Virus record (IMG/VR): IMGVR_UViG_3300042876_000313
Location: 12,617-76,616 of that record
DNA from: a virus
Length of the DNA stretch: 64,000 nt
Strand: one strand, 5' to 3'
The position numbers were made by a program, and so were the translations under genes. Positions 5,896 through 52,734 of this stretch are shown piece after piece (within the stretch, counting starts at the first letter, position 1; each line of letters begins with the position of its first letter). Below the pieces are notes generated by a model. That model saw only the letters and a list, made by a program, of their open reading frames with translations, searched no databases and was not told the origin of the DNA.

Positions 5896-5941
5896 AAACG
5901 GTCGGCAGACTCAGCACCCGGTCTGCCAGCGGTTTGGGTGG

Positions 5942-6226: not shown

Positions 6227-6266
6227 GTGTTTGTTCTTTCTTCGTCCCGGCGTCATTGCCGGAAAT

Positions 6267-6512: not shown

Positions 6513-6519
6513 AAATCAA

Positions 6520-7191
6520 TCATTTTGCCAACCGATAAAACAGCATCGCGGGATTCTGGTTCGTGGACTCCACCCACGGCACCAGCGTTTCCGACTTTGA
6601 CACCCTCCATCCCGCCGGGGAGTTTGTCAAGAATGACGACTGCCACGCCGGTTCAATGTCCAGTTCCCACGCCGTCACCGCGTTCGTTCCGCCGCGATCC
6701 ACGTCGGCCATGAACAGCGTCCACTCCCCGGCCACCGGCATCCCCGCGAAGTCGCCCAGGCGATTGACCCTCGGCGAAGTGTCCGTAATCGTGGAAGGGT
6801 CGTCCATCCGCCCGTCCGGTTGCAGGCGCCCGGTCAAATTCGTCGCCGTGTGACTGTCCCCGGCGGCCCGGTCGTCGAATACCACGTCCAACCCGCCATC
6901 CAGTCGGCCCCACGGGTTGCCCGCCGTCCGGCCCGTCCGGTTCAGAAGCACCACCAGGTTCGTCCGGCCCGGCGTCATGTTCCGCAGGTAGGCGTACAGA
7001 TCACCGTTTGACTGGCCGGCGACCCGCACCCGGCAGGTCAACCGCGCAATCGTCCCCTCGTTCGTCACCGTCATCCGCAGCGACCGCCCGCTTGCGCTCC
7101 CGTCCGGGATCGCCACACTCAGGTTCGTCGCAGAAAACGTCTGCGCCATCAAACCCGAACATACCAGCATCAGCATCATCGTTGTTTTCAT
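6520..7191 (-). CDS. Secreted proprotein-convertase P-domain protein
   Basis: Signal peptide MKTTMMLMLVCSGLMA; AIPDG, GDLYAYL, L..F.G....GEWTLFMAD...W.L P-domain motifs; C-terminal FYRL. Confidence 0.8.
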   Translation of the reverse strand: MKTTMMLMLVCSGLMAQTFSATNLSVAIPDGSASGRSLRMTVTNEGTIARLTCRVRVAGQSNGDLYAYLRNMTPGRTNLVVLLNRTGRTAGNPWGRLDGGLDVVFDDRAAGDSHTATNLTGRLQPDGRMDDPSTITDTSPRVNRLGDFAGMPVAGEWTLFMADVDRGGTNAVTAWELDIEPAWQSSFLTNSPAGWRVSKSETLVPWVESTNQNPAMLFYRLAK

Positions 7192-7194
7192 AGT

Positions 7195-7461
7195 TCAACC
7201 TTTCCATTCTTCGGCGGACAAAAAGAGCCTCCGGGCGCGTTTGAATTTGTTCGCACCAAGCCATACCTCGTAAAATCCCTGCTGCTTGATGATCGAAACC
7301 CGGATGCCCCTTGTTTTCGCCGGCTTGTAAAATCGCGTGGCCTCGTCGAGACTGTCAACCCGGATGCAGTCCTTGGCCGTCAGTGAGGCCAATGCTAGGG
7401 CGAATTTGTGCTTGGCAATCTTCACAGGTCGGGGCGCGTTTCGGATGATCTGGATGCTCAT
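7195..7461 (-). CDS. Hypothetical basic protein
   Basis: Coupled ORF in the operon. Confidence 0.6.
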   Translation of the reverse strand: MSIQIIRNAPRPVKIAKHKFALALASLTAKDCIRVDSLDEATRFYKPAKTRGIRVSIIKQQGFYEVWLGANKFKRARRLFLSAEEWKG

Positions 7462-7658
7462 AACGGTTGGCTTTTGTCTGCCCAGGAGTCCGGGCGATTG
7501 TCGGGTTTGGATTTAGGGCGTCGGCCACCGTGGCATTGCTCGCAGACAACGTGCTTGGACAGGCTTTCCAGCAGGTCGGCCAAAGACTGGCTGATGTTGT
7601 CCGGGACTTCAATCTCAATTTCCCGACCGCATTTGGCGCATGGGATTCGGTGATTCAT
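7458..7658 (-). CDS. Zn-finger protein
   Basis: CAKC...CEQC; ATGA overlaps. Confidence 0.6.
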   Translation of the reverse strand: MNHRIPCAKCGREIEIEVPDNISQSLADLLESLSKHVVCEQCHGGRRPKSKPDNRPDSWADKSQPL

Positions 7659-8281
7659 ACGTTGAAGTCCGGGGCGTGGATTTCGCAGACGACCGAACTG
7701 TGGCGGATAAGACGGCTGATTATCCGGCTGTCCATTGTGGCGATCTGCTTAGTGGAAAGGTTGGTGGTGAACATCGTCCATTGTCCTTCACGCATGGACA
7801 TCATCGTGTAAAGGTTGTCTGCGGAGAACCCGTTCGGGTCTCGCTCGGCACCGAAGTCGTCAATCACTACAAACGGCCAAAGCTGGATGTCCCGGAACCA
7901 TTCCCACGCATCGCCGTTCCGCAGCCGGTTTATCACGTCCGGCCATTTCAAGAACTTCGGAAAGTATTGCTCTCGACCGGAGTTTCTCTCGAACCAGTCC
8001 GATCCTCTGATGGCCTCCCAAAGGCGACCGGCGCAATGGGTTTTCCCGATGCCAGAGTTTCCGCAGAGCGTCAACCAGCGCGGAGACAACCCTTCCTTCC
8101 ACGCGGTTGAAAATCTAGCCACAGCGTCAATCATTGGCTCGATCTCCGAGCGCGGTTCAAGTTTTAACCACTTTGCCCACGTTTGCGTATTGATTTTCAA
8201 GTCCTTCATTGAGGGTTCCGATATTACGGTTAGCGCGGTTTGGAGCCGTTTGCTCATGGACTGGCATGGTTCGGTTGGCAT
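7655..8281 (-). CDS. DnaC/IstB-like helicase loader ATPase (start uncertain)
   Basis: Walker A GNSGIGKT, Walker B VVIDDFG, TMFTTN, SRIISRL; adjacent to initiator. Confidence 0.85.
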   Translation of the reverse strand: MPTEPCQSMSKRLQTALTVISEPSMKDLKINTQTWAKWLKLEPRSEIEPMIDAVARFSTAWKEGLSPRWLTLCGNSGIGKTHCAGRLWEAIRGSDWFERNSGREQYFPKFLKWPDVINRLRNGDAWEWFRDIQLWPFVVIDDFGAERDPNGFSADNLYTMMSMREGQWTMFTTNLSTKQIATMDSRIISRLIRHSSVVCEIHAPDFNV

Positions 8282-20276: not shown

Positions 20277-21890
20277 ATGATGAAAAAACATCTGTTGTTT
20301 TTGATGGTTTTTATCGCCGTCACGCTGATGACGACGTGCGCCACTGCGGCCACGAACGTCTGGCTTGGAGATCAAATCAAGACGAACTCGATATACCCGA
20401 CGAACTACGTCCAGTTGATGGTGCAGAGGCCGGGAACATCGGGAGCCGGGTCGAACGGTCTTTGGCGTTTGATTCGCGGCGACCAACTGATTTACAGCCT
20501 GATTAATTCCACGCAATTTGTCACGAACAGCGACGGAAAACTGGTCATTAAAGATGGTGCGTTCACGACCAACCAGACCTTGTTCAACCCGTACCTTAAC
20601 TACGACGGAGGTGGGGTCGGGTACATCGTCCAGGAACCTCGCAACGAAGGCATCTGGTGGTATCAAGACGTAAACGATTTCTTCAAGATTGACGCCACCA
20701 ACATTCAGGCGTACATACCAATTCGAGGTATTGATCCTGTTGCGACTAACGATCTGGTGACGAAAAACTATGCTGACGCCATTACTGGAAGCACAAACCA
20801 GCCACACATTACCGTTACCAATGGGATAAACTTTCTCACAAACGCTCCACTTAAGCTGTATGGCACAGGCTACGAAAGTGGAACCGATTATAGCTATGGT
20901 CGTTTTTCAATGACTTCAACTGGACTCAATATTTGCACTCTCAGAGCCGGTTCTTCCACGACCAATAATCAGGTGATTTATTTCTGCACAGATGGAACGA
21001 ATCGTTGGGGTATTAATCAAATTGGAAATTTTATTCCATTAGGAGCAGACGGTGCATATAACATAGGAAGTCTTACGTCTCCGAGAATTGGTGCTGTTTA
21101 TGGAAATATTATACAGTCTGTAAACAATATGGTTAGTGGAGCGGCGATAACTGCAACAACGCACTTTGAATCTCAAGGAAGGATTCAGTTGTCTGGTGGA
21201 GGGACGCAATACGGATTACTTCAACTAAACGCGGCAAATAACGGTGGGGCATTCATGCAAACCACAAACGCATGGGGTATCTCGTTTGGCACTTTCAACG
21301 CGGCGCACCCGTTCATCATGTCATCAAATCGCAATCTTGCTTTCACTCACGGAGGCGACCCGTCTGGAGCATCGGCAACAGTAGTGATTGATTCGATTAA
21401 CAACACGAATATGTTTCGCGGCTCCACCACCATCACCAACCTCACAAACTCAGGCCCAGTGGCGTGGACTTATGGCGGCCGTTGCACTATGATTATCAGC
21501 AATTCAACCGTGCAGTTTGACACGACGGTAACACCTATCGCACTCAGCAACTACACGCGCACGACGGTTTCTCGAAACATCGGAGCAGATTTGACAGCGG
21601 GAACCTTGCAACTCACAAATGCTGGGACGTACATGGTTTATTTCAATCTCTCTTTTGAGACGACCACACAGCCAGCGGACGCGGTTGCGGAAGTGTACTT
21701 GGACAGCACAGCTACTGGCTTGCGCTTCAAACGCGACATGACCGCGAACAGCGCATCTGGTAGCGCGACCATCAGCGGATTGATTACCGCAACCGCTGGC
21801 CAGTTGTTGTCGGTTAAAATGTCCACAACCTCGACAGAAACTATGATTGTCCGTTGCGCTCAGTTAACAGCTAAACAAGAACCTGATTAA
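20277..21890 (+). CDS. Signal-peptide-bearing fibre-like protein with C1q/BclA-type C-terminal head
   Basis: MMKKHLLFLMVFIAVTLMTTCATA signal; DLVTKNYAD fibre motif; AGTYMVYFNLSF...SATISGLITATAGQLLSV. Confidence 0.7.
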   Translation: MMKKHLLFLMVFIAVTLMTTCATAATNVWLGDQIKTNSIYPTNYVQLMVQRPGTSGAGSNGLWRLIRGDQLIYSLINSTQFVTNSDGKLVIKDGAFTTNQTLFNPYLNYDGGGVGYIVQEPRNEGIWWYQDVNDFFKIDATNIQAYIPIRGIDPVATNDLVTKNYADAITGSTNQPHITVTNGINFLTNAPLKLYGTGYESGTDYSYGRFSMTSTGLNICTLRAGSSTTNNQVIYFCTDGTNRWGINQIGNFIPLGADGAYNIGSLTSPRIGAVYGNIIQSVNNMVSGAAITATTHFESQGRIQLSGGGTQYGLLQLNAANNGGAFMQTTNAWGISFGTFNAAHPFIMSSNRNLAFTHGGDPSGASATVVIDSINNTNMFRGSTTITNLTNSGPVAWTYGGRCTMIISNSTVQFDTTVTPIALSNYTRTTVSRNIGADLTAGTLQLTNAGTYMVYFNLSFETTTQPADAVAEVYLDSTATGLRFKRDMTANSASGSATISGLITATAGQLLSVKMSTTSTETMIVRCAQLTAKQEPD

Positions 21891-21895
21891 AGAAT

Positions 21896-22306
21896 ATGAA
21901 AAAAACTCTGTTATTTTTACTGGCGAGTGTTTGTGTCTTAACCGCGCAGACGCCGAACACAAATGACATCAAGGCAACTTGGAATGTGCCTTGCCAGTAT
22001 TCCACCAACCAATGGACGGCTTTGGTTTGGCAATATCGGAATTTGACGAATTCAATTCCTTTGGTTACGAATGTTGTGCAGGGAGTTTCAACCAACGTCA
22101 CCACATCAACACCAGTCCCGTCAATAACTGACTGGCATATTGCAAACGTGCGCCGGATGTCAGGTCAAATGGCTGACTCATACGTTGAACAGCGCAAGGC
22201 CGCTGAGACTTCGGTTTCAGGTTGGATTTCACTTCGGGACGCTTGGGCCGACCTTACGCCGGCCCAACGCACGGCGGTTCTTAACGCGGCGGGATTGAAT
22301 CCTTAA
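21896..22306 (+). CDS. Secreted small protein (possible fibre chaperone)
   Basis: MKKTLLFLLASVCVLTAQ signal peptide; lies between the two fibre paralogs. Confidence 0.65.
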   Translation: MKKTLLFLLASVCVLTAQTPNTNDIKATWNVPCQYSTNQWTALVWQYRNLTNSIPLVTNVVQGVSTNVTTSTPVPSITDWHIANVRRMSGQMADSYVEQRKAAETSVSGWISLRDAWADLTPAQRTAVLNAAGLNP

Positions 22307-22321
22307 CCAAAAACCGGGAAA

Positions 22322-25276
22322 ATGAAAAGGCTATTACCGATTCTGATGGTTCTGTTTATGGTCGCGCTGGTGACTTCCTGCGCGACTGCGGCAACGAATG
22401 TTTGGCTTGGAGACCAGGTGCGTACTAACTCGATTAAGCCCACAAATTACGTTCAGTTGATGGTCCAGCGTCCAGGAACGTACGGAACTGGATCAAACGG
22501 ACTTTGGCGCCTTATTACCGGGGCCGACTTCATCAGCAGCCTTGGCTTGGCCACGGACACGGAATTGCAGAACGGAACGAATTCGGTCAAGAACTGGGCC
22601 ATTACCGCGCTTGGATCAAACCAGTTCAATACGACCCAGTTCGCTACCAATGGATCAGGAAAGGTGACGATCAAGAACGGGGCATTTCTGACCAACACGA
22701 CCGAGTACGCGCCATACCTGACGTACAACGATGGCTCCGGCTACAACACCGTCATTGAGCCTAGAAACAATGGTACGTGGGCGTACAATGATGTAACCGA
22801 TTTTTGGAAATTTGACACGACAAACTGGACGTTTTTCCAATCAGTTTCCGGGCCGACACCAACCCAGCCCAGCAATCTCGTAACCAAGGCATACGCGGAC
22901 AACCTGACCAATGGGCTTGGAAGCGCGTACAATCCGCTGGTCAACTCCAACTTTTTTATTATCTACGCCACCGGACAGGGCACGAATACCTTGGGTGGAG
23001 GAACCAACATCCTGGTGCTTTGCGAGAATTCCAGCAGCACTAACACCGTGATTTTGCCAGTGTCCCCTACCAAAGGTCAGGAGGTGATCGTGAAGCACTG
23101 GGCCGGGTCATGGAGCCATTCGTCGGTGGTAATTGATGGAAATGGGAAGTTTATTGACAACTTCAACTCGCTTGAATTGACGAATTACCACGAATCTGTT
23201 TGGCTGATTTACAGCACGAACGCTTCAAGGTGGTTCATTGTCTCGCACGTAAACGAAACGCAGACCGGAACTGGAACCGGAGCCACCAACACCTTCGACT
23301 CAAACTTCACTCTGACGGACGGAACCAATGTGCATCTGGCGGTTGGTGGAAGTTACTCAAATTCATGGTTAAATATTCCCGTCACAAAAGGAAATGTAAA
23401 GTTTTTCTCAAGCCTTATTAATTTTTACAGCGATATGAATGTTATTATTCCTGGAGTGCTGACAAACTTTACCACTTATGGAAAAATGGAGAACGGTAAA
23501 TTTACATATCCAGCAATCGTCGCCAGTGGGAATGGTGTATTAGGTGAATCTCCTGGTCTTGAAGTAACATACCACGCAAGCATCGGAGGACTGCTTCAAG
23601 TCGAAGGCACCACCAACCTTAACGACTGGGCTAGGCTTGGGACGAATGTGCTGGGTTCTGGTGGAGTTGCAACCAATGTTTCAACCAACATGGTCGGAAT
23701 GACTTGGTGGAACCTGAAAGACCACGGAGCGAAGTTTGACGGGGTATTGCTGACTAACGCGGCTTGGACTTTGAACGGGACAAATCTGGTCTGCACCAAT
23801 GCGACTTTTGGGACTGGTGATGTTGGGAAGCTGGTGTTTATATACGGAGCAGACGCCAGCAATACCAACTGGACTGGATACATCCACACTTACGTCAATA
23901 TTCACACGGTTGCGATAAACCGGGCGATAATCGGAGGTGCATCTTTTAACGAAGGAACTGGTAAGGTTGTATATGGAAGCAACGACCAAGATGCGTGGCA
24001 GCTTGCTTTCGACCAAGTGACGAATGGGAGCGTTACGATCTATGCTCCGAATGGAATATCCGTGGTTGGCGGGAGCTTTTCTGCTACGAAAAACTCACTA
24101 ATTGCTGTTCCAGATGTTGGGTATTATGGAACCATTGTCCCGACTCTGCGCGTGGTTGGTGAGTCTGCGCCGTGGTCGGGTTACACCGGCCCAGGCTCCT
24201 TGGCGCAGTGGACGCACCAAGGATCAGCGATATGGTGCGTGGTTACGGGTAACGGAACGAACCAAACGCTTATTTCGTCAACCAACGTCACCAACCCTTA
24301 CGAGATGGGCGGTGACAAGTGGAACAATGTTCGCGTCCGGTTTGAGAACATCGGGTTTCGATTGCTGCCAAACCCGCAGATGTCATGCCTTAATTTGTCG
24401 GAAGCTTGCACGGCAGACTTGTTTAACACCTATGTTGATACCGGCTGGGTTGGATACACCGGGCCAGCACCAACCTGCGTGAATTCGGTTGCGGTAAAGC
24501 TTCCGCGAACGAACAACAGCGGAATCGGGATTAACCGGCTGGATCAGGTGAATGTTTGCGGGACTTACGTTGGCATTGACTCCTACGAGGGCGTATGGGG
24601 GTCACAGATCGGAATCATGTCTGGAATTATCGGATTGCGCCTGAATGGTTCCTACCATGCCGCAACCTACACCGACGTTATCATCACCGGAAATTCCACA
24701 AACATTTACGTCACTGGAGCGAACCGGACGACGATTGCAAACTTCAAAACCGAACACGCATCCGATGCCCAATGGTACGGAACCGACGTTGACCTGTACG
24801 ACCCAAGCAACTATTTGAAAGGCTCAATTAGCTGGGCGGTTGTGAAGGCCGGCGTTGGCATAGACAGCACTTGGACGCAGGTTGGTGGAACGAATTGTGT
24901 GGTGGTTGAGATGGGAAAATCTCCGGTTGTGAAATACGCAGGCCATTACGATGACGGCTCTTTGTCAAACGTGTTCGGTGGCTCTTACGTTGCTCTGACT
25001 ACTAACGCCCCAAGTGACGGGCAGGTATTGACCGCAACTGGAAGCAAGGCGAAATGGGCAGTTGCCGCTGGATCACAGACTCCGTGGACTCAGGATGTAA
25101 ATGCGGCTGGCTATGCGCTGACGAATCTTAACGGTCTGTTTGTTACTGGGACAAACCTTCCCGCGAGCAGCATGGGAAATGGTGAGGTTCAACTTTACAA
25201 CTCCAACGGGGTTCTTTACGCAATCTGCAAAGACCTTGGAGGAAACGCTACTACGAACAAACTTGCGCCACCATGA
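22322..25276 (+). CDS. Signal-peptide-bearing tailspike/fibre with pectin-lyase-like beta-helix
   Basis: Signal MKRLLPILMVLFMVALVTSC; N-terminus paralogous to 20277; NLVTKAYAD; T4 gp9/10-like TVILPVSPTKGQEVIVK...SVWLIY...W; NLKDHGAKFDG...NDQDAWQLAFD...TIYAPNG beta-helix start; SQTPWTQDVNAAGYALTN. Confidence 0.75.
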   Translation: MKRLLPILMVLFMVALVTSCATAATNVWLGDQVRTNSIKPTNYVQLMVQRPGTYGTGSNGLWRLITGADFISSLGLATDTELQNGTNSVKNWAITALGSNQFNTTQFATNGSGKVTIKNGAFLTNTTEYAPYLTYNDGSGYNTVIEPRNNGTWAYNDVTDFWKFDTTNWTFFQSVSGPTPTQPSNLVTKAYADNLTNGLGSAYNPLVNSNFFIIYATGQGTNTLGGGTNILVLCENSSSTNTVILPVSPTKGQEVIVKHWAGSWSHSSVVIDGNGKFIDNFNSLELTNYHESVWLIYSTNASRWFIVSHVNETQTGTGTGATNTFDSNFTLTDGTNVHLAVGGSYSNSWLNIPVTKGNVKFFSSLINFYSDMNVIIPGVLTNFTTYGKMENGKFTYPAIVASGNGVLGESPGLEVTYHASIGGLLQVEGTTNLNDWARLGTNVLGSGGVATNVSTNMVGMTWWNLKDHGAKFDGVLLTNAAWTLNGTNLVCTNATFGTGDVGKLVFIYGADASNTNWTGYIHTYVNIHTVAINRAIIGGASFNEGTGKVVYGSNDQDAWQLAFDQVTNGSVTIYAPNGISVVGGSFSATKNSLIAVPDVGYYGTIVPTLRVVGESAPWSGYTGPGSLAQWTHQGSAIWCVVTGNGTNQTLISSTNVTNPYEMGGDKWNNVRVRFENIGFRLLPNPQMSCLNLSEACTADLFNTYVDTGWVGYTGPAPTCVNSVAVKLPRTNNSGIGINRLDQVNVCGTYVGIDSYEGVWGSQIGIMSGIIGLRLNGSYHAATYTDVIITGNSTNIYVTGANRTTIANFKTEHASDAQWYGTDVDLYDPSNYLKGSISWAVVKAGVGIDSTWTQVGGTNCVVVEMGKSPVVKYAGHYDDGSLSNVFGGSYVALTTNAPSDGQVLTATGSKAKWAVAAGSQTPWTQDVNAAGYALTNLNGLFVTGTNLPASSMGNGEVQLYNSNGVLYAICKDLGGNATTNKLAPP

Positions 25277-26265
25277 TAACATTTTTCACACTACTGCTTA
25301 CAGCCTGCGCCTGCTTTGGGCAACTGATAATTCGCAATCAAGCCCCAAGCATTGCGCCATCCATCTCCACGCAGCCAACGAACCAGACCATTCTTACTAA
25401 CCAGAACGCATCATTCACGGTGGTCGCAACTGGAACGCCAACACTCTATTACCAGTGGCAGACAAATAGCGTCAATGCTTATGATGGAGGGCGCATTTCA
25501 GGGTCAACCACAACTCAGTTGACCTTTACGGCGGCAACAATAGCGGACAGCAATACGCTGGTGCGCTGCATTATAACTAACTCAATCGGAAGCATCACCA
25601 GCGATGTTGCCACGCTTACAGTTACAAATGGTGTTGCAAGCACGAACTTTCTGCCTTCTGACATTGCAACACTTGGCGGTTGGTATGTTTACACCAACTA
25701 CTACACGAACGGATCAACTGCAACACTTCCAGACTTGTCAGGAAATGGTCGAGAACTGACGCAAACCACATCCAGCTACATGCCATCAACAAATTCAGAT
25801 GGGCTTATTTTTGGAAACGACACTTCTCTTTCAAAAGCGTCAATTACAAACACACTTCCCATTGAAGTGTGGGTGGTTTGCAATATTACGAACCGTGGAG
25901 GGAACGAGTTAATCTCGGCAATTAATCGGGCGGAACCTTTGGCTGCAACTTATCAGCCTGGATCAACAAGAATTATAGCATACCCATCGGCAGTGCTTTC
26001 ATTCACAAACACAAACACATGGATGGTGTTGAGTTATTTTTACAGCGCGGCTGGTGCTGGTAATATCAGCTTTAACAACGGAACAACTAACACCTCCGGC
26101 ACTGTTACAGTCGCGTTGAAGCAAATTGACCTTGGAGACTCGCTTAGGAACAGCCCATTTTGGGGCGCGATTAAAGAGGTTGTAGTTTATACAAACTTAA
26201 ACTCTGGCGCGGACAAGTTGAAGATTTATCAATACATGACGAACCGATGGGGATTTTCTCCGTAA
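25273..26265 (+). CDS. Secreted Ig (I-set) plus ConA/LamG-like protein
   Basis: Signal peptide; APSISTQPTNQT...FTVVATGTPTLYYQW...RCIITNSIGSITS; PDLSGNGRELTQ...GAIKEVVVY...YMTNRWG. Confidence 0.75.
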   Translation: MITFFTLLLTACACFGQLIIRNQAPSIAPSISTQPTNQTILTNQNASFTVVATGTPTLYYQWQTNSVNAYDGGRISGSTTTQLTFTAATIADSNTLVRCIITNSIGSITSDVATLTVTNGVASTNFLPSDIATLGGWYVYTNYYTNGSTATLPDLSGNGRELTQTTSSYMPSTNSDGLIFGNDTSLSKASITNTLPIEVWVVCNITNRGGNELISAINRAEPLAATYQPGSTRIIAYPSAVLSFTNTNTWMVLSYFYSAAGAGNISFNNGTTNTSGTVTVALKQIDLGDSLRNSPFWGAIKEVVVYTNLNSGADKLKIYQYMTNRWGFSP

Positions 26266-26316: not shown

Positions 26317-26571
26317 ATGGATATGCAAAATATACTCGCAGCATCAGCGTACCCACTCATAGGGGCCAGCACGGCGTTACTGGCATTTGGGGAGTCGGCA
26401 GTGCCGTTTGCTACGGTAGTTGCCTGCCTGGTATTCGTCTGGAATCAATCGGCCAAGTTCCAAAAGGCCATTGACCAGATTGAACACTTGGCTGACAAAT
26501 TCGACCATTTGCCTTGCGCCAAGTGCGAGGATCACTGCAAGATAGAGCGCGGCGTAGGGCCGCACAGTTGA
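26317..26571 (+). CDS. Small membrane protein (lysis cluster)
   Basis: Two hydrophobic segments followed by a short coiled coil. Confidence 0.55.
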   Translation: MDMQNILAASAYPLIGASTALLAFGESAVPFATVVACLVFVWNQSAKFQKAIDQIEHLADKFDHLPCAKCEDHCKIERGVGPHS

Positions 26572-26573
26572 CC

Positions 26574-26909
26574 ATGAATTTGTCCGACATCGCCTATTCC
26601 GACGTGGCCACGCTCAGTCCGACGATCCTGCTGGCGGTCGTGCTGAACGGCGTTGGGGTATTCCTCAAGCGATCCCCGCTCAAGGATTGGCTGATCCCGT
26701 TCGTCCTGATAGCCCTCGGCGCGTTGATCTACCCGTTCATCGCCGATGTAACCGAACTGCACAGCGGAACCCGTAATGCCACGGCCTACCGGGTGGTTGT
26801 TGGTTCGGCCATCGGGGTTATATCTGTGGGCGTCCATGCCACTTTGAAGCAGTTCATAGGCCGGAAAGGGGACAGCGGCCAGACCGATTTCATCCAACGG
26901 AAACCATAA
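26574..26909 (+). CDS. Holin
   Basis: Three TM helices, KDWLIP motif, GVHATLKQ C-terminus. Confidence 0.7.
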   Translation: MNLSDIAYSDVATLSPTILLAVVLNGVGVFLKRSPLKDWLIPFVLIALGALIYPFIADVTELHSGTRNATAYRVVVGSAIGVISVGVHATLKQFIGRKGDSGQTDFIQRKP

Positions 26910-26936
26910 ACCACAAACCAAAATCCAAATAAACAC

Positions 26937-27464
26937 ATGAAAAACACGATCAAATATTGGGTGGCCTGCATCATGCTCGCCGCGTTATTCACCGTTTCGT
27001 TGTTCGCGCAGGTGGTCGCCGGGCCGGATTCGATGCCGGCGCCGCCCGAACCGTCAACCCCGTGGTGGATCACCGTCTTGGCGATTACCGCGACTGTCAT
27101 CGGCTCGATATTCGCTTGGATTGGCAAACTGATCGCCACCAAGCTCAAGCTGTCACAGACCCAGGCTGACGCGATGGACGCCTGCACGGCGGCAGTGGCA
27201 CAGACCTATCAGGATTACGTCAAGGAACTCAAGAAGTCCGGGAAGTTCGGCGCCACCGAGAAGGCGTTGGCCAAGGAGAAGGCCATGTCGCTGGCAAAGG
27301 AACTGGCCAAGGGGCCGGCCAAAGACCTGCTGCTGTCCTACGGCAAGGAGCATATTGGGGCGTGGATTGAGCAGATCGTCACCAAGCTCAAGGGCGGAAC
27401 CAAGCTGGAAAACGGCGTCATTGACGTGCCAGCAACCATAACGCCTGCTACCCCCGCAAAATGA
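26937..27464 (+). CDS. Holin-like (LL-H type) membrane protein with N-terminal signal/TM
   Basis: AAVAQTYQDYVKELKKSGKF...AKEKA...WIEQIV after a TM helix. Confidence 0.5.
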   Translation: MKNTIKYWVACIMLAALFTVSLFAQVVAGPDSMPAPPEPSTPWWITVLAITATVIGSIFAWIGKLIATKLKLSQTQADAMDACTAAVAQTYQDYVKELKKSGKFGATEKALAKEKAMSLAKELAKGPAKDLLLSYGKEHIGAWIEQIVTKLKGGTKLENGVIDVPATITPATPAK

Positions 27465-27670
27465 CCTTCATCGGCCAAATCATTTATGCGCTGTTCAAGC
27501 CATTCCTTGAGGAACTTTTCAAGCAGTTCAACCTTGCCGGCAGCCGGCCAGTCGTGGCGACGGATGCTGCACCGGCTGACCCCGGCTTTAAGGCTGCTTG
27601 GGATGGCAGTCTTGCTGGCCAGCTTGAGCGGATGCGCCTTGTTCGAGAGAAACAGGGTGGTGTTCGTTGA
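27461..27670 (+). CDS. Small membrane-anchored protein (i-spanin-like position)
   Basis: Amphipathic N-terminus; overlaps a lipoprotein gene in another frame. Confidence 0.45.
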   Translation: MTFIGQIIYALFKPFLEELFKQFNLAGSRPVVATDAAPADPGFKAAWDGSLAGQLERMRLVREKQGGVR

Positions 27671-27812
27671 CGGTGGAAGTAGCTATCCACGGCTCGACGA
27701 CGATTGCTGGGGGCACGTTTTCACCGAAGACAAGGCTACTGGCCAATGGGTGCGAAGCTCGAAGAAAGTGAAATTGCCACCCGGTTGGTACGTTGGGCCT
27801 GGGCCAAAATGA
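27564..27812 (+). CDS. Lipoprotein, o-spanin-like
   Basis: LLGMAVLLASLSGC lipobox; overlapping arrangement like Rz/Rz1. Confidence 0.6.
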   Translation: MLHRLTPALRLLGMAVLLASLSGCALFERNRVVFVDGGSSYPRLDDDCWGHVFTEDKATGQWVRSSKKVKLPPGWYVGPGPK

Positions 27813-28084: not shown

Positions 28085-29614
28085 TCAAGTGTGAATTATC
28101 GGATTCCCCGGCTTGGCCAATCGCATCTCAATATCGTTGACCAACTCGCTCCAAGCCTCCATCGCAATCAGGTAGCTCATCGCGTCGAAAGCATGGCGCA
28201 GGGGATCGCCCGACCGCTTGAGCGACCCTTGGGCGTTGGTCTTGAGCATGGTCATGGTCTGAATCAACTGCTCGCACCGGGACGAGATGAACAGGCGGTT
28301 GGCGAAAAGGAGCCGCCGCGTAAGCTGGATGCGCTTGACGACCGAGTTTGGCCCCTTGGTGACGCCTTGTAGTTCGATGGCCTGGTCGGAAGCGCGAAAG
28401 ACCTCCTTGGCCTCGTTGGACGCGGAGATGGACTGGAACCCCGACATGGCCGATGAATCCGACCAGTGAACCCAATTAACCTTCCGGCCAATCACCTTCT
28501 CCCAGTACGCCATCAAATCCATGAATTCTAGGGTCAAATCTTCGAGCTTGATGGGGGTATCAATCATTATCAGTTCGTCGAGGATTTTGAACACCGGCTG
28601 TTCTTCGCCTGGTTTTCCGGCCATGACCTTCTCCGCGATGACGATGGCGTTATGGATGTCGCCCAAATCCCAGCCCGTGTAGAGCGTGATGCAATCATCT
28701 TCCGGCATCAGGATAGCCGGGTTGGGATCGGCTACGGTCGCCATGTCGCCCTGGACATGAATCTCCGGGCGCCACACGCGGGCGAAGGCGGTATCTGAGG
28801 CTGACGACTTCCATTCACCCAGCCAGTGCCGGGCGTACACGTCCGGCCCGGAGAGCATGAACTGGGCCTGCAACTCCTGTTTCTCGGTATCGGTCAGCCA
28901 CGGGTTGTCGGATACAGCGAATCGGTATATGGCCAGTTTGTCGCGGAGCGCGATCATCGCCTCGACCGTGTTCGGGAATTGTTCCTCGATCTGCTTGCGC
29001 GTCATTCGCCGGAACACATGGAAAAGCTGGTAAATCCAGTGGGACTGACCTTCCTCGGCGGGGTTGGTGTCAATCAGGAACAGGAAGTGGGGCTTCCACG
29101 AATCATCGTACCCGCGCAAGCACTGCATCATAATCTCGAAGGACGCCCGCCGCTTGAAGTTGGCGGCTTCCGTCAGGTAGATGCAGGAATAGTACCGTCC
29201 TTTGTAGATGCGCTCGACTTCCCGCTCGTTCTTGAGGGAGTCCAGTTGCAGGCGGGAAACGCCACCGTGCGCGTTCGTAATGGCGCACTCCATCTTATGC
29301 GTGAGACTGGATAACTTGGGGGGCGTGTGCCACTTCATGCCGATCCCTGAGTCAATCCATTCGGGCAGGATGTGTTCCACCATCAGTTGCCAGGTGCCGC
29401 CGTCGTAGTTGTCCGTGAGCGTTCTGCCGGCCATTGCAGCACGGGCGTTCGGGCACTCCCACAGGTGACGGGCCAGGCGATGGCAGGCGCCGAATGTTTT
29501 GGACGACTTGCGTGGGCCTTCAACGTCCACAATCAGATGGGAAGATTCGGCCAGGAGTTCGGCCTGCTTTTTGGAAACGGATGGGAACCATTGGCCTTTT
29601 GCGTCTATTGGCAT
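28085..29614 (-). CDS. terL: Terminase large subunit
   Basis: Q-motif SKKQ, Walker A-like GPRKSSKT, Walker B-like IYLTE, DTNP, DNPWL, RHWLGEW, RNase H-like GWDLG...HAFDAMSY. Confidence 0.9.
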   Translation of the reverse strand: MPIDAKGQWFPSVSKKQAELLAESSHLIVDVEGPRKSSKTFGACHRLARHLWECPNARAAMAGRTLTDNYDGGTWQLMVEHILPEWIDSGIGMKWHTPPKLSSLTHKMECAITNAHGGVSRLQLDSLKNEREVERIYKGRYYSCIYLTEAANFKRRASFEIMMQCLRGYDDSWKPHFLFLIDTNPAEEGQSHWIYQLFHVFRRMTRKQIEEQFPNTVEAMIALRDKLAIYRFAVSDNPWLTDTEKQELQAQFMLSGPDVYARHWLGEWKSSASDTAFARVWRPEIHVQGDMATVADPNPAILMPEDDCITLYTGWDLGDIHNAIVIAEKVMAGKPGEEQPVFKILDELIMIDTPIKLEDLTLEFMDLMAYWEKVIGRKVNWVHWSDSSAMSGFQSISASNEAKEVFRASDQAIELQGVTKGPNSVVKRIQLTRRLLFANRLFISSRCEQLIQTMTMLKTNAQGSLKRSGDPLRHAFDAMSYLIAMEAWSELVNDIEMRLAKPGNPIIHT

Positions 29615-36329: not shown

Positions 36330-36845
36330 ATGAAAAAACTGAGTATCATTGCGGTTCTGGCCTTGACCACGGTGTTTGCGTCCGCGCAATACTTCGCGGG
36401 CACGTCGCCGAAAGCGTTTAACGTCATCCCGAACAACGAGGGGACGCCTATTGTCGTCACCCTGTTTGGCACGAATGTCGTGACCAATGCCACTACGCGG
36501 GCCTTGACCACGCCGACTTCGGCCATCGAAATCCCAGGTGGCCGTGACGTGGGGATTCTATTGCAGGGCACGATCATCACGAACAACGCCGACGTGACGG
36601 TGAACTACCAGTTGTCGCCGGACAATGCGAACTGGACGTGGCCGCCGCTGACCATTACGCCCGGCGTTATTTCATCGAACGCATCGCCGACCTTCAAGGT
36701 GCCGGTGACGCTATCGAACTCGGTGACGTACCCGTTCCGATATTTCCGGGTCTATTCGGCGACGGCAGGCACGAACAGCCTCTACCTGTCGAACGCCATC
36801 GTCGTTTACAAGTCGAACCCGCAGAACAACAATTATAGCCGGTGA
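36330..36845 (+). CDS. Signal-peptide-bearing beta-sandwich protein (decoration-like)
   Basis: MKKLSIIAVLALTTVFASAQ; YQLSPDNANW...FRYFRV motif of phage structural proteins; immediately after capsid gene. Confidence 0.7.
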   Translation: MKKLSIIAVLALTTVFASAQYFAGTSPKAFNVIPNNEGTPIVVTLFGTNVVTNATTRALTTPTSAIEIPGGRDVGILLQGTIITNNADVTVNYQLSPDNANWTWPPLTITPGVISSNASPTFKVPVTLSNSVTYPFRYFRVYSATAGTNSLYLSNAIVVYKSNPQNNNYSR

Positions 36846-37449: not shown

Positions 37450-39084
37450 ATGACGTTCGCCGAACTCCATGCCGCGTCCAAGGCCAACAACTTCCCGGAC
37501 GGCCTGCCGTCGAACCTGCGGAACCAGTATCGCAACGCCGTGACGGACGCCCTGATCGCCGCGCAGAAGTATTGCAAGACCGTGGACGGCGAGGAAGCGT
37601 ACTACCAGCAGCGGCACATTGACCGATTCCCGTTCTGCTCGACCTACTTCAACTGCGGTGCGACGGTGGTGCCGGCCCCCAACGGGCGCGTCTTGGAGGT
37701 CTATACGGTCGTGGACGGCTTGGAGTGCTGCCGGGTGGATTACACGCCGGTCGCCAACTTCTCGGAATTCCGCCAGTGGATCGCCCGGTGGACGGAATCA
37801 TGGACGGAACCGCCGAACGTCGGGATGCCCAAGGTTCAGCCGGGGTTCAAGTTCTCCGAAGCCGTGACCGACAAGGCGATGGGGCGGGCCGGGTACGGCC
37901 ATTACTTCATCCATAACCGGAAGATTTTCATCGGGCCGCGCATCGAGAGCGACGAGATCGTGGTGGTGGAATGGGCTGGGTTGAAGCAATCCTTCGATGA
38001 CGCCGACATTGTGACCGATGACATTGACCGGGAGTTGGCCCGGTACACCGAACTGTACGCCGCCCATGAGGTCTGGTCCCGGTTCATGCAGGACACCCAG
38101 CAGGCCGGGGTTTTCTTCGCCAAACAGCGGGACGCCATGATCGAACTGATTTCTTCGGCGCAAGACAAGCTGCTGGCGAACAAGCGCAAGGCTCAATTCC
38201 CGTCTCCCCGGTCGGTGGGCGGCTGCGGGTGTCTGTCGAACGAGTGCCGGGTAGTTGCCCCGGCGGCGGACTTCGGCGGCGTTACGGCAGCGGCCAACGA
38301 GCGGGTTATCGCGTTCACATCCGACATCCAGAACGAGAACGACGCCTTGCTGACCGAGGAACAGTTGGTCGAGACTCTGATTACCGGGTGGACGCCGGAC
38401 GCCATCGTGTTCGGGGGCGACCTTCGGGAAGGCACCTACACCTACCAGGAGATGTTCACCGACATGACTGGGTATGCGGGGTTCTTGGAGCGCACGGATG
38501 CCGCCACGAACCGACTGTGGCCGGTGCTGGGCAACCACGACTGGACGGATGCTGGCGGGCTGCTGGAATGGTACTCGTACTTCCAGATGTTGCCGAACAA
38601 CCAGCGGTACTACGAATTTGTCGTTGGGGCAGTCCATTTCTTCGCGCTATCGGGGTACGCCTCGGAGCCGGACGGGATCACTTCGACATCCCCCCAGGCC
38701 GAATGGCTGCGGGTCAAGCTGGCCGCGAGCAACGCCAAATGGAAAGTGGTACTGATCCATCAGCCGCCGTACTCGTCATTGGCCGGGTATGACGGCACGG
38801 TGTACCGCTGGCCGTTCAAGCTGTGGGGCGCTGATCTGCTGATTACCGGGCACGTCCACGCCTACGAACGCTTCCTCGAAGCCGGGCTGCCAATCATCAC
38901 CTGCGGTCTGGGCGGCGAAGAACCGCTGGACACGCTGGGCGCACCCATCGCCGGGAGCTTGTACCAGCATGATACAACGCACGGGGCCGTTCGGATGGTG
39001 GCGGGTTGTGACCGGCTGGTGTGCGAATTTTACCCGGTGAACACCACGACGCCCGTTGACACTTTGACCCTGACAAAACCATGA
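37450..39084 (+). CDS. Head-tail adaptor fused to calcineurin-like metallophosphoesterase
   Basis: N-terminal MTFAEL...YFIHNRKIFIGP...LYAA adaptor pattern; C-terminal FTSD, GGD, GNHDW, HQPPY, GHVHAYER. Confidence 0.75.
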   Translation: MTFAELHAASKANNFPDGLPSNLRNQYRNAVTDALIAAQKYCKTVDGEEAYYQQRHIDRFPFCSTYFNCGATVVPAPNGRVLEVYTVVDGLECCRVDYTPVANFSEFRQWIARWTESWTEPPNVGMPKVQPGFKFSEAVTDKAMGRAGYGHYFIHNRKIFIGPRIESDEIVVVEWAGLKQSFDDADIVTDDIDRELARYTELYAAHEVWSRFMQDTQQAGVFFAKQRDAMIELISSAQDKLLANKRKAQFPSPRSVGGCGCLSNECRVVAPAADFGGVTAAANERVIAFTSDIQNENDALLTEEQLVETLITGWTPDAIVFGGDLREGTYTYQEMFTDMTGYAGFLERTDAATNRLWPVLGNHDWTDAGGLLEWYSYFQMLPNNQRYYEFVVGAVHFFALSGYASEPDGITSTSPQAEWLRVKLAASNAKWKVVLIHQPPYSSLAGYDGTVYRWPFKLWGADLLITGHVHAYERFLEAGLPIITCGLGGEEPLDTLGAPIAGSLYQHDTTHGAVRMVAGCDRLVCEFYPVNTTTPVDTLTLTKP

Positions 39085-41120
39085 AATGGGAAACCGTAAC
39101 CGACGCCCCGTGCAATAACGTGCCGACCAGCGCGAGCGACGTGGAGTGCCAGAATCAGGCCGATGGCGATTCACCGGGCAACGGGCCGTATGATGCGCCC
39201 ATGCTGATTATCAAGCCCGCCTACGCCGTGGTGCAGGCCGGGGACACGTTGCAATACGAGACTTTCCTTGTCCAGAACGGCGTCGAACAGCAAATCAACT
39301 CCGGGCTGACGTACACCTCCAATCATCCGGGAATGGCTCAGATCGGCGTCGAGAGCGGTAACGCGGTCGGCCTGGCGGAAGGCACCGTGACCATTACCGT
39401 GTCATGGGGAGGCATGTTCGCTTCGGCTCAACTGCTGGTGGTCGAGTCCTGTTCGGATACCACGACGGCCATGATGCTGCTGATGGACGTTTCGCCTTCG
39501 ATGGGCCAGGCGATGCCGGGGTACGGCACGAAGCTGACCTTCGCCAAGATGGCGGCTTTGCGGATGAGCAATGAACTGAACGTGGCCAAGGACTCGATGT
39601 TGCTCAGTCAATTCGCAGCGGCCTACGCCGGGGTGGTGGCCGAAACGGTGGACAAGCCGCTGATGGCGACGGCGATCAACTCGCTGGCCATCGTCAACAC
39701 GCAGGAAACGAACCTGCTGTCGTCCGTACAATCGGCCTGCCAGGATTTGAACGGAACCGCCGCCACCATCAAAGTGTTGGTGGTAATCACGGATGGCGTG
39801 TGCAAGGAGATCGGCGATCCCACGGTGCCCAACCTGCTGGCGCAGATTGCAGCGACCGGCGTGGTGGTCATGGTGCTGGGCGTGCGTGCGTCTGGTGACG
39901 GGTTCAGCCTGCTTGAACTGCTGGCGACCGGCGGGTTCATGGGCAACGCCTACGACCTTTGGACGGGCCAGAACGCCTTGGACTTGATGAGCGGGCTGAA
40001 AGGCTACCTGTGTGCCGGCGGGTGCAATTCGACCGAGCCGTACACCATCAATCAGGGCGTGGCGGAATACACCGGGTTTGCCAACTGGGATGTCGCGTCT
40101 GGCAAGGTTGACTTGTTCGGGAATGGCTTCATGGATTTCTTACCGGGGAATGGTCTGTACGTCAATCTGGCGGGAATTGGGACTGAGGACGGGCCGCTGG
40201 CGTTCGCCTATCAGTGGGTGATCTCGGCGCTGCCGATGAACATCAACACGCTCGAAGGACCGAACACGCCGTCAGTTTCGTTTGCGACTCCCAAGATCGT
40301 GGACGGCATCCGCGTGCGAACGTCCCTGTACGATTACAGCGGGACGCCAATTTCGGATTATGCCGCCGGGAAGCTCAAGCAGTTCTCGGTTTACGGAACC
40401 AACGGGCCAATGCCAGGGACGCTCATCAAGACGTTCATCCTGGACTGCACGGATGTCGTTGGGTTGAACAACCTCATCGGCCCGGCGTCCAACACCATCC
40501 TGCACCTTGGCAACAACACGGCGTACACCTCGTTCTACATCCAACTCCAAGACGCCTGCGGGGCTGAAACTGCGGTGGTCGTGAACTCGGTTGACTGGTA
40601 CACCAAGGCCGTGGCCAACGTGCCGTCCAACGGGCGGCTGGTTACGAAGGTGGCGGTTGTCTCGGTGGCCAATGCGGAATACTGGCTGACCGTGCGACTG
40701 GCCGGGAACCAGCGGGCGGAAGCGTATGCCGACCAAGTGCGGATTCGCGTGGGGCCGGTGGGCGGCCCGTATGCGCTGGACGAACTGGTGACGGTTCCGT
40801 GGGATCAGCCGTTCGAGAGCCAGGTTTTCAGCTTTTTCGCCGACGTGGTGCCTGAGAATTGGTACGTGTCAATCGAGCAGGTGTCAACGGCGACGGCGGG
40901 CGCGGGAATCCTGTTGGATTCAGTGAAGCTTGAGCAAGTCTGGCCGGTGTCGGCGGATGTGTTCGATTTCGGGTTTGATGCGGAGAACCCGCAGGTCATC
41001 CAGCCGCCGTGCCCATCGGCCTACGCCTACATCTACACGAACTGCGGCGGGTACGGTTGTCTGGACAATCCACCAGGGGCGCAATCGCCCGACCCGAATC
41101 CCCTGCCGAAACTCGAATAA
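39081..41120 (+). CDS. Virion protein with Ig-like (Big_2), VWA and jelly-roll domains
   Basis: YTSNHPGMAQI...GTVTITVS; MIDAS DVSPS, ETNL, VITDG. Confidence 0.75.
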   Translation: MKWETVTDAPCNNVPTSASDVECQNQADGDSPGNGPYDAPMLIIKPAYAVVQAGDTLQYETFLVQNGVEQQINSGLTYTSNHPGMAQIGVESGNAVGLAEGTVTITVSWGGMFASAQLLVVESCSDTTTAMMLLMDVSPSMGQAMPGYGTKLTFAKMAALRMSNELNVAKDSMLLSQFAAAYAGVVAETVDKPLMATAINSLAIVNTQETNLLSSVQSACQDLNGTAATIKVLVVITDGVCKEIGDPTVPNLLAQIAATGVVVMVLGVRASGDGFSLLELLATGGFMGNAYDLWTGQNALDLMSGLKGYLCAGGCNSTEPYTINQGVAEYTGFANWDVASGKVDLFGNGFMDFLPGNGLYVNLAGIGTEDGPLAFAYQWVISALPMNINTLEGPNTPSVSFATPKIVDGIRVRTSLYDYSGTPISDYAAGKLKQFSVYGTNGPMPGTLIKTFILDCTDVVGLNNLIGPASNTILHLGNNTAYTSFYIQLQDACGAETAVVVNSVDWYTKAVANVPSNGRLVTKVAVVSVANAEYWLTVRLAGNQRAEAYADQVRIRVGPVGGPYALDELVTVPWDQPFESQVFSFFADVVPENWYVSIEQVSTATAGAGILLDSVKLEQVWPVSADVFDFGFDAENPQVIQPPCPSAYAYIYTNCGGYGCLDNPPGAQSPDPNPLPKLE

Positions 41121-42536: not shown

Positions 42537-42699
42537 ACGCTTTTGATTTCACCCGGTCAAAGCAAGCTGACACAGTATTACCAGTGGGTCGCGCCGTCCC
42601 GCTTTGCGGACAACGGAGAAACGCGATCTGCCGAAACCGGGAGGAAAGGCTGGCGGCTTTTATCCGCGCATCCAGCGTGGCTGCCAGCCAATCAATTTT

Positions 42700-45254: not shown

Positions 45255-45482
45255 ATGTCAGGCACCACGCCAGTTAAACCTTCTGAATTCCGAGCGTTAG
45301 TCCCGGACGTAAACGATTCGGTCTGCACGGTGCTGCGGAAGTTTTTCAAATTCATGCTGCTGTTCTGGATTTGGTATCGCTGGAAATACGTTTTCGACAC
45401 TGGCGAACTTTCGGACGATTACGGGGACATGGTTTGTGACGCCATTGCCAGTTGCAAGAAAGCCCCTGTCACAGGAGATTGA
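45255..45482 (+). CDS. Stand-alone tail-fibre anchor-like domain
   Basis: Paralogous to the N-terminus of the next gene (P.EF+.L+P...C...G...D+....C....C). Confidence 0.6.
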   Translation: MSGTTPVKPSEFRALVPDVNDSVCTVLRKFFKFMLLFWIWYRWKYVFDTGELSDDYGDMVCDAIASCKKAPVTGD

Positions 45483-45483
45483 T

Positions 45484-46968
45484 ATGCCAAACTCTGTTTT
45501 ACCCACCGAATTTAAGCAACTTATTCCGCGCTTTCAAAGCTCCATGTGCGGAAAGTTCATCCCAACCATAACCAATTTCATCCAGCGTTTTTACGACTAC
45601 TACTCCTACGAATACAACGAGGATGGTTCGTTCACCGATGAATTCAAGGCCGACCTCTGCGCCCTGGGATGTACGGAAGTTGGGTTGTGCCCGGTTCTGA
45701 AAACCGCTCCCATAATCGTAGCTGGAAACGCGACGGTTTCATTGACCTTTGAAGTGACCGGTCCAGTGCCATACGACTACGACCTGTTCCGCGCCATTGG
45801 CTATAACCAGAAGGCCGTAACGGTGGATGCTGGAACCAACAAGATCGCGCTCGCCACGCACGGCCTTGACGATGGCCGAAAGGTGAAGTTCACAGCCACC
45901 ACAATGCCCGGCGGATTGACCGCCAACCAGACATATTACGTCGTCTCATCGGCAGCGGGTGATTTCAAGGTTTCAACATCTTCGGGCGGTTCTGAAATTG
46001 ACATCACCAGCAATGGGACGGATGTGAAATTGACCGCTGTGGCACCGACAACCGATTCACTGTGGGATTCCGCCATCCAATCGGACACGGACATTGACGA
46101 TACCACATTGGTTCTGACGGACGCCACGGTGACTAACGATACGGTGTACTACTACCGCTTGGTGGTAAGCAAGTCTGGCTGCGCGAATTCCGAATACGTC
46201 ACCAATTCAGTTCTTCCAACCGCTTGCTACGTGACAGGCGATGATTACCTGTTCACCTTAACCCAAGGGGAGTCTGCTTTGACTGTGAACTTGACGGCGG
46301 CGGGGACGACCCCGATCCCCGATGGCACAACGGTAAAAATCTATCGCAGCACGAATCCCGCCGCCATTGGAACATTGGCCAATTCAGGCGCGTTCGCTGG
46401 TGGGACTTACACGTACACCGATGGTAGCCTGCAAATCGGGACGCGCTATTACTACACCGTCAAGGTTCAACAGACCGGGGCTTGCACGGAATATGAAATC
46501 CGCAAGGACGGGTACGCGACATCGAGTAATCAGCTTGACGCTCCAATTCTGTCGCTGAACGCTGGAATTCTAAGTTGGGCTGCTCAAGATGGGATCGGAG
46601 ATTACTGGGTATATGCGAATTCAACTTGTGGTGGAGGTTCAGAGCTTGTGGTTCCTGGGTCTGGAACTCATTTAATGAACGCTGTGAACCCGCTACACGC
46701 AACCAAAGACAATGCGACCAACCGATACTCGGTCAACTTGAACACGTTGAAATGGAATTGCTGCTACGGCCAGAACTGGTACGGAGCAGCCAACCCGTGG
46801 GTAAATGCTGGCCCATTACTTACCGGAAGTCAGGCTGAAACCTGCCAGAACATGCTTGGTGCCAAGCCTCAAAAGAGCTACCAGATCGTTGTGGTTGGAT
46901 CAGGCCCACCGTTGAGCGGTGTGGTGACGCACGAAGCCAGAACCGTTTTCCAAATCGTCAGGGGATAA
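45484..46968 (+). CDS. Tail fibre/appendage protein with FN3-like domains
   Basis: ATHGLDDG.KVKF...GGLTANQTYYVV domain; YYYRLVV and YYYTVKV strands; no signal peptide. Confidence 0.65.
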   Translation: MPNSVLPTEFKQLIPRFQSSMCGKFIPTITNFIQRFYDYYSYEYNEDGSFTDEFKADLCALGCTEVGLCPVLKTAPIIVAGNATVSLTFEVTGPVPYDYDLFRAIGYNQKAVTVDAGTNKIALATHGLDDGRKVKFTATTMPGGLTANQTYYVVSSAAGDFKVSTSSGGSEIDITSNGTDVKLTAVAPTTDSLWDSAIQSDTDIDDTTLVLTDATVTNDTVYYYRLVVSKSGCANSEYVTNSVLPTACYVTGDDYLFTLTQGESALTVNLTAAGTTPIPDGTTVKIYRSTNPAAIGTLANSGAFAGGTYTYTDGSLQIGTRYYYTVKVQQTGACTEYEIRKDGYATSSNQLDAPILSLNAGILSWAAQDGIGDYWVYANSTCGGGSELVVPGSGTHLMNAVNPLHATKDNATNRYSVNLNTLKWNCCYGQNWYGAANPWVNAGPLLTGSQAETCQNMLGAKPQKSYQIVVVGSGPPLSGVVTHEARTVFQIVRG

Positions 46969-52733: not shown

Positions 52734-52734
52734 T

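Follow-up and report, generated by a model that had tools for sequence, protein, structure and literature searches.

A lysis-proximal cassette of fiber- and spike-like phage proteins with predicted Sec leaders

Four consecutive genes of a phage genome, A to D, form a cassette of fiber- and spike-like proteins that begin with predicted Sec-type leaders and lie directly upstream of the lysis genes. The genome is IMG/VR record IMGVR_UViG_3300042876_000313, a complete virus of 76,616 bp. The window analyzed here is the 64,000-nucleotide stretch from base 12617 to base 76616 of that record, and coordinates refer to the window unless stated otherwise. Tail fibers and tailspikes are generally assumed to be folded and assembled in the cytoplasm. 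At the level of sequence, the leaders of A-D, their conservation among relatives, the modular architecture of the proteins, the position of the genes, and an island of deviating composition are firmly established. The reading that we tentatively favor is that A-D are exported cargo, freed at lysis to act on surface glycans and not built into the particle. Two further leader-bearing proteins, E in the structural block and a minus-strand product of the early region, are considered with them.

20277..21890, plus strand: protein A, 537 amino acids (aa); leader at residues 1-24 (20277-20348), N-module at 25-75, second module at 77-170, shaft, and head at about 439-537
21896..22306, plus strand: protein B, 136 aa; leader at residues 1-17 (21896-21946); no family match
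22322..25276, plus strand: protein C, 984 aa; leader at residues 1-23 (22322-22390), A-type N-module, LVTKAYAD at 188-195, and spike-type domain at about 463-867
25273..26265, plus strand: protein D, 330 aa; leader at residues 1-16 (25273-25320), immunoglobulin (Ig) I-set domain at 28-118, and C-terminal domain at 151-329
36330..36845, plus strand: protein E, 171 aa, directly after the capsid gene; leader at residues 1-19 (36330-36386); no family match
6520..7191, minus strand: leader-bearing protein of 223 aa in the early region; no family match

Leaders and predicted cut sites

Leaders were identified with a rule script that requires an uncharged h-region of at least 8 residues and evaluates n-region charge and small residues at -3 and -1, together with reading by eye. 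The rule was applied to a greedy set of 119 open reading frames (ORFs), many of them spurious. A long h-region (14-19 residues) combined with a -3/-1 cut site occurs in this set only in A, B, C, D, E, the minus-strand protein at 6520, and a lysis-cassette protein starting at 26937. Other ORFs that pass the rule are weak, antisense, or short. The genes at 20277, 21896, 22322, 25273, and 36330 all lie at the coordinates given in the initial annotation, and the n-h-c leaders that it had placed on them were recovered, the one on D without a basic n-region. A basic n-region, an h-region, and small residues at -3 and -1, as expected of a Sec substrate of signal peptidase I (SPI), are all present in A, B, C, E, 6520, and 26937.

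The leader of A consists of MMKKH followed by 19 hydrophobic residues, with a predicted cut at ATA/ATN (the slash marks the cut). The other predicted cuts are LTA/QT in B, ATA/ATN in C, CFG/QL in D, ASA/QY in E, LMA/QT in 6520, and LFA/QV in 26937. Alternative cuts of the lipoprotein type, judged against the lipobox pattern [LVI][ASTVI][GAS]C at the end of the h-region, can be drawn in two of the proteins. In D there is a lipobox-like LTAC, and in C the sequence LVTSC fits a lipobox, with the Cys five residues before the SPI-type cut. The lipobox VTSC proposed earlier therefore fits C itself; it does not extend to A, which has LMTTC at the same place with a misfitting Thr at -1. Among the relatives described below, P0003 fits a lipobox, and the corresponding position lacks Cys in P0006 and P0014.

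According to the positive-inside rule, a positive n-region leaves the bulk of a protein outside the inner membrane. Since their n-regions are positive, A, B, C, E, 6520, and 26937 are predicted to lie mostly outside the inner membrane, whether cleaved or not. It is very likely that the leaders of A-E direct Sec export. A releasable anchor of the signal-arrest-release (SAR) type was considered and rejected because the h-regions are rich in Leu, Phe, Ile, and Val and not in Gly and Ala. A leaderless isoform of A made from an internal start was likewise rejected, because the next available Met, at position 48, already lies within the best-conserved part; no downstream start gives a leaderless form with the conserved N-terminus, a possibility that the initial annotation had raised against itself.

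Conservation of the leaders among relatives

An exhaustive phmmer search with residues 1-213 of C against 1.84 billion protein representatives returned only 18 proteins, and relatives were grouped from phmmer, word-index searches, and all-against-all BLAST. Nine metagenomic relatives share modules with A or C (P0003, P0006, P0007, P0009, P0010, P0014, P0015, P0021, and P0022), and all nine pass the leader rule, as expected if homologues keep the leader. The leaders are often unrelated in sequence (MKRTFLVLVAV..., MQWLAAAILLL..., MRTIIAFLLAA..AFA/QT, MKKIIVLLSLF...). Another nine proteins match only in the LVTKxYAD region, a segment of about 40 residues that is often repeated within a protein, and eight of them lack a leader. 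Because every module-sharing relative carries its own leader and nearly all motif-only proteins have none, the leader is, on this comparison, a selected trait and not an accident. In aligned relatives, including those free of Cys, the conserved domain begins at the predicted cut (GHA/ATQ and VRA/ATY, compared with TA/ATN in A and C).

Comparison of A with C gives a similar picture. The genes are 69% identical in nucleotide sequence over the first 74 codons. Mature codons 25-74 differ by 22 synonymous and 10 non-synonymous changes, clear evidence at the codon level of purifying selection on the mature N-terminus, and the leader has accumulated 10 replacements with its hydrophobicity kept. Protein E has four relatives at 58-87% identity, all with a drifting leader that ends in x-A/QYF, and one of them shares a 77.8-kb contig with P0003. 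A fifth relative of E, from a contig of 1.8 kb, is leaderless and is apparently a chimeric gene call.

Modular architecture

The region shared by A and C is larger than the 170 aa or so that had been noted at first. The two proteins are 45% identical over 260 aa, a region that ends at LVTKxYAD, and their first 50 or so mature residues are nearly identical. A and C are old paralogues. The LVTKxYAD module was correctly recognized in both; in A it reads LVTKNYAD (residues 158-165) and closes the second module. The LVTKxYAD region is the part that matches ordinary leaderless fibers.

Residues 25-250 of A were modeled as a homotrimer, the arrangement expected of a fiber. The model scored 0.75 against 0.00 for the best control, at least 72% of contacts are shared between its runs, and the partner predicted local distance difference test (pLDDT) value is at least 61. 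The tightest contacts fall at residues 142-166, the LVTKNYAD neck. In calibration, 20 of 30 solved pairs and 1 of 23 single chains attained a score of 0.75; the model used a custom alignment and three copies, unlike the calibration, and so it supports trimerization of the N-module of A but does not demonstrate it.

The distal parts of A and C differ. Three weak lines suggest that the head of A is TNF/C1q-like. It matches the Pfam TNF family below threshold (15.2 bits against a cut-off of 23, E 0.02), it falls with C1q clusters of the Atlas (0.90), and its best Foldseek matches are the fiber tips of cyanophages A4 and A-1(L) (9k09_A and 8ke9_A) and TNF ligands, at E 1e-5 to 1e-3 from a model with pLDDT 55-62. 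The C1q head of the initial annotation is therefore retained in this broader and weaker form.

Residues 463-864 of C have 47% identity to P0021, which exists as a stand-alone protein and bears a leader of its own. Residues 547-867 also match a leaderless 732-aa protein (28% over 327 aa, pairwise E 2e-25), which is encoded at 5689-7887 of MT835568.1 (L004), a high-GC fecal phage, just after a tape-measure-like gene, and belongs to no Pfam family. The spike-type domain thus occurs both leaderless in a tail module and in a form predicted to be exported. The family formed by this domain of C and the MT835568.1 protein appears to be uncurated. The last 63 aa of C are common to P0022. A tailspike beta-helix had been suggested for C. 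Atlas leads agree with it (PF12708 features 0.94, template modeling score 0.80), and P0021 gives a sub-threshold PF12708 match (16.3 bits against a cut-off of 27), while C itself has no Pfam match to PF12708; the pectate-lyase-like beta-helix label is a lead. AlphaFold2 (AF2) models were poor for both proteins (pLDDT 42 for A and 40 for C), and Foldseek with the C model of pLDDT 40 returned nothing.

D carries an Ig domain above the Pfam thresholds (I-set 33.5 against 30; Ig_3 30.4 against 23.7). Its nearest solved relative is gp20 of phage Sf14, a Hoc-like decoration protein (PDB sequence match, E 7e-18). Residues 151-329 have a virion-structural PHROG match and no Pfam match. The Ig part of the earlier Ig plus LamG assignment stands, and LamG found no Pfam match in D. 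A T4 gp9/10-like domain that had also been proposed has no Pfam match, only an Atlas lead of 0.85 to a cluster in which PF07880 occurs on 24% of members. PDB sequence searches with A, C, B, and E gave nothing useful, and NCBIfam gave nothing. Protein B is possibly a helper of A.

Composition and host signature

G+C content at third codon positions (GC3) is 0.47-0.57 in A-D, 0.70-0.78 in the flanking genes, and 0.54-0.86 elsewhere, mostly at least 0.60. The borders of the low-GC3 island at 20277 and 26265 are sharp, and the A-D cassette was probably acquired by horizontal transfer. E (0.79) and 6520 (0.82) have the native GC3.

Gln stands at +1 in five of the seven predicted cuts (B, D, E, 6520, and 26937), and Ala in A and C. 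Gln at +1 is also found in P0010 and in the four E relatives. Bochtler et al. (PMC5837995) reported Gln at +1 in a mean of 71% of Bacteroidetes SPI substrates. In Chlamydiae, Spirochaetes, and, for the most part, Chlorobi and cyanobacteria, they found a share that is typically below 20%, Ignavibacterium being one of a few exceptions. The sequences upstream of the start codons are A-rich with few Shine-Dalgarno motifs. From the +1 Gln and the weak Shine-Dalgarno usage we infer a host from the Bacteroidota or closely allied. This Q-rule signature would tie the leaders to the host's own processing.

A-E and 6520 are rich in Asn and Thr and poor in charge. Thr-Asn (TN) dipeptides occur at 2.3-4.9 per 100 residues in these proteins and at 0-0.7 in most cytoplasmic and virion proteins; three other proteins reach up to 1.7, including the leaderless fiber of the structural block at 1.2. 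In A, C, and D the TN count is 5-8 standard deviations above shuffles of the same protein. The TN excess is a candidate structural repeat or modification site. The suggestion that the exported proteins are glycosylated found no backing in known motifs. In A, D, and E, N-x-S/T is no more frequent than composition predicts, with a z of only about 2 in C, and there is no enrichment of D-S/T-[AILVMT], the O-glycosylation motif of Bacteroidota.

Position next to the lysis genes

The cassette is in the lysis-proximal slot rather than in the tail module. A-D form their own operon upstream of the holin gene, outside the tail module. This operon and the terminase gene point toward each other, and the structural block lies apart from it. 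Gaps within the cassette and to the neighboring genes are 4-51 nt, or the genes overlap. Scans for sigma-70 promoters and terminators stayed at chance level and none stood out, and the Bacteroides-type promoter pattern TTTG..TAnnTTTG gave 0 matches. The lysis cassette follows D directly:

26514..26909, plus strand: holin (PF16079, phrog_1129), the start of the lysis cassette
starts at 26937, plus strand: 175-aa protein with an N-terminal leader or anchor (LFA/QV) and a weak holin PHROG match
within 26937..27812, plus strand: a small ORF, then a 108-aa ORF with a lipobox (LSGC)

By position and motif, the 108-aa ORF is spanin-like and may encode an outer spanin. No endolysin was recognized among the genes scanned in the lysis cassette (26317-27812).

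The slot before the holin is open to two readings. In an unrelated IMG/VR phage, L002, the same slot before the lysis genes holds a leaderless 946-aa fiber with HLVTKAYADNLV; judged by their size, sequence, and order, the genes after it would be a holin, an endolysin, and a spanin. The pre-holin slot therefore fits a true tail fiber. In lambdoid phages, the Shiga toxin (Stx) genes occupy the slot upstream of the lysis genes, and their products carry Sec signals, assemble in the periplasm, and are released at lysis. By analogy, the position of A-D fits this cargo slot equally well.

Fate of the exported proteins

In the sequence of events that we tentatively favor, a horizontally acquired cassette of fiber- and spike-like proteins would be made together with the lysis genes. 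Sec would export A-D, and the SPI of a Bacteroidota-type host would trim them, as the Gln at +1 in B and D suggests. The proteins would then fold in the periplasm as trimers, a step to which the model of A lends support as far as trimerization goes. The adjacent holin/spanin system would open the envelope and set A-D free. The freed proteins could act on host surface glycans through the lectin-like TNF/C1q head of A, the spike-type, enzyme-like domain of C, and the Ig and second domains of D. The least certain step is that A-D would stay envelope-bound or free, and off the virion.

Several findings weigh against this sequence. A strongly conserved N-module is typical of a protein anchored to a fixed partner, and a free or envelope-acting protein has no obvious need for one. 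A fiber gene followed by a holin gene, as in L002, is the normal arrangement for true tail fibers. No leaderless homologue of the N-module was found among the 1.84 billion representatives, so A and C are not decoy copies of a virion fiber. As to crossing the outer membrane, no acidic lipoprotein export motif was found after the Cys, and no C-terminal sorting domain of the type IX secretion system (Por_Secre_tail or other) gave a Pfam match at E up to 0.1.

An alternative that we consider unlikely is that A and C are real, exchangeable receptor-binding fibers, matured in the periplasm with B and D as helpers and docking by the N-module at the holin lesion or after lysis. A conserved and apparently trimeric N-module, swapped distal modules, and two paralogues make up a classic receptor-binding architecture, and the lack of leaderless N-module homologues fits with it. 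The head of A resembles the cyanopodophage fiber tips 9k09_A and 8ke9_A, the central domain of C is homologous to the leaderless protein that follows the tape-measure-like gene of the fecal phage, a leaderless fiber with the same motif occupies the pre-holin slot of L002, and small leader-bearing genes follow each fiber gene, as chaperone genes do. Yet A-D lie outside the structural module in an island of foreign composition, and the particle already has a leaderless fiber and a tail protein. The location of the island outside the tail module and the leaderless fiber within it argue mildly against docking on the virion. The possible lipid anchor of C would sit on the docking end, and our literature search found no described precedent in tailed phages.

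We see a slim chance that the proteins serve the lysogen instead, either as anchored fibers displayed on the envelope or in superinfection exclusion by masking or destroying receptors. The phage is temperate, with a tyrosine integrase, and the cassette has a moron-like composition. The order of leader, conserved N-domain, and variable fiber with tip is that of the 21 MAT proteins of Bdellovibrio bacteriovorus (PMC10769870). The lipobox-like VTSC of C and the further leader-bearing protein in the early region (6520) would also suit such a role. However, the cassette is tightly spaced, with late-looking genes on one side and the holin gene on the other, no promoter or terminator stands out, and no outer-membrane export signal was found. 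The 6520 protein itself is a candidate envelope-modifying or exclusion protein. It is also very unlikely that the leaders do not direct export at all, being structural or assembly elements or false positives on fibers that assemble in the cytoplasm. Signal-peptide calls on phage structural proteins can be artefacts, as with capsid proteins (PMC10367356), and D has no basic n-region. Against this, n-h-c geometry and -3/-1 sites are common to all seven leaders, five of which have the host-specific Gln at +1. The h-regions are strongly hydrophobic and not SAR-like, the leader sequence drifts among relatives with its shape kept, and alignment of the relatives places the first residue of the conserved domain right at the predicted cut (HA/ATQ, RA/ATY, and TA/ATN).

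Genome context

A 127-bp repeat is common to both ends of the record, so the assembly is circular. Two rhizosphere DNA metagenome runs contain the window and may be its source; none of the matching runs listed is an RNA run. The tyrosine integrase, from which the phage is read as temperate, lies outside the window at 5774-7111 of the genome, on the minus strand. The structural block is on the plus strand, from about 29.5 kb to the window end, and a lone minus-strand gene, the large terminase, separates it from the lysis cassette. Portal- and capsid-like genes in the block were assigned by size and position. The main features outside the cassette are the following:

28085-29614, minus strand: large terminase, flanked by the lysis cassette, toward which it points, and by the structural block
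within 37450-41120, plus strand: calcineurin-like phosphoesterase (metallophosphatase)-domain protein, 544 aa, in the structural block
within 37450-41120, plus strand: VWA-domain protein, 679 aa, in the structural block
41496-45212, plus strand: run of glycosyltransferase-like genes; 41496 matches glycosyltransferase phrog_2170
45436..46968, plus strand: tail-fiber-like protein without a leader, inside the structural module and unrelated to A and C
46970, plus strand: tail protein without a leader, in the structural block

The fiber gene at 45436-46968 is the separate, non-exported fiber of the initial annotation, and its product indeed lacks a leader. The outer virion proteins are rich in Cys (10-21 residues), and the products of 49823 and 51312 and of a giant ORF contain no Cys at all. 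The giant ORF, of 4,459 codons, closes the structural block (52669-64000 of the window, then 1-2175 of the genome with the end repeat collapsed). It has zero cysteine and no Pfam match above threshold (DNA_pol3_beta_3 26.5 bits against a cut-off of 27), and it is probably an internal or ejection protein. Family scans of the phage proteins gave no match to a sheath or tape-measure family. Among 50,697 phage records, tblastn with the capsid and the terminase as queries detected nothing similar. Searches of viral, metagenome, and genome collections for loci related to the N-module, P0015, P0022, the terminase, and protein E were also negative, and for the terminase and protein E this includes IMG/VR. 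No tRNA genes were found.

Implications

A family of fiber-like phage proteins in which an export signal is never missing contradicts the picture of cytoplasmic assembly in one of two ways. Either fiber-shaped lectins and enzymes serve phages as a separate weapon delivered into the host envelope, or a part of the virion is finished outside the cytoplasm. From their leaders, A-D probably fold outside the cytoplasm, the compartment where the particle is made. Our literature search found no paper describing export signals on fiber-like phage proteins. Should the second way hold, which we doubt, and Sec-exported receptor-binding fibers (perhaps E too) join the particle at the holin breach, they would follow an assembly route without a described example among tailed phages. 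Either outcome would bear on host-range prediction, in which such genes would be mis-scored as ordinary receptor-binding proteins. It would also bear on the handling of capsule and surface glycans by Bacteroidota phages and on the design of phage-derived depolymerases.

Comparison with known systems

The fibers and tailspikes of podophages (of the P22 gp9 and T7 gp17 type) combine a conserved N-terminal anchor with swapped distal modules. A and C resemble them in the modeled trimeric N-module, the LVTKxYAD neck, the mosaic distal parts, the TNF/C1q-like tip of A, the spike-type domain of C, and the position before the lysis genes. They differ in that A, C, and their module-sharing relatives carry a Sec-type leader, and in that A-D lie outside the tail module in a composition island. 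A place in the tail module and the absence of an export signal, both expected of a fiber or spike, are found in none of A-D. The Stx genes of lambdoid phages share with A-D the slot upstream of the lysis cassette and Sec-type signals. There is no homology between them and no toxin-like domain in A-D, so the analogy is one of position and route.

The +1 Gln leaders have a counterpart in phages of Porphyromonas gingivalis, where Matrishin et al. 2023 described Q-rule leaders on genes of unknown function and read them as use of the host Sec/SPI pathway (PMC10367356). Fiber or spike architecture is present here, and none was reported there. The exported glycanase WceF of Pantoea stewartii, a bacterial protein, has a tailspike-like fold (PMC7949094). 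It resembles the cassette proteins, as read here, in being a tailspike-type trimer meant for the extracytoplasmic space and differs as a host gene in an exopolysaccharide cluster.

The MAT fibers of B. bacteriovorus have a signal peptide, a conserved beta-rich N-domain, a variable trimeric fiber, and interchangeable tips (Caulton et al. 2024; PMC10769870). Compared by architecture only, A and C follow the same order of signal peptide, conserved N-domain, and variable fiber with tip. Unlike MAT proteins, A-D gave no Pfam match to an S74 domain. The MAT genes are chromosomal genes of a predator whose products have been shown on the cell surface, whereas A and C are phage genes that adjoin the lysis genes.

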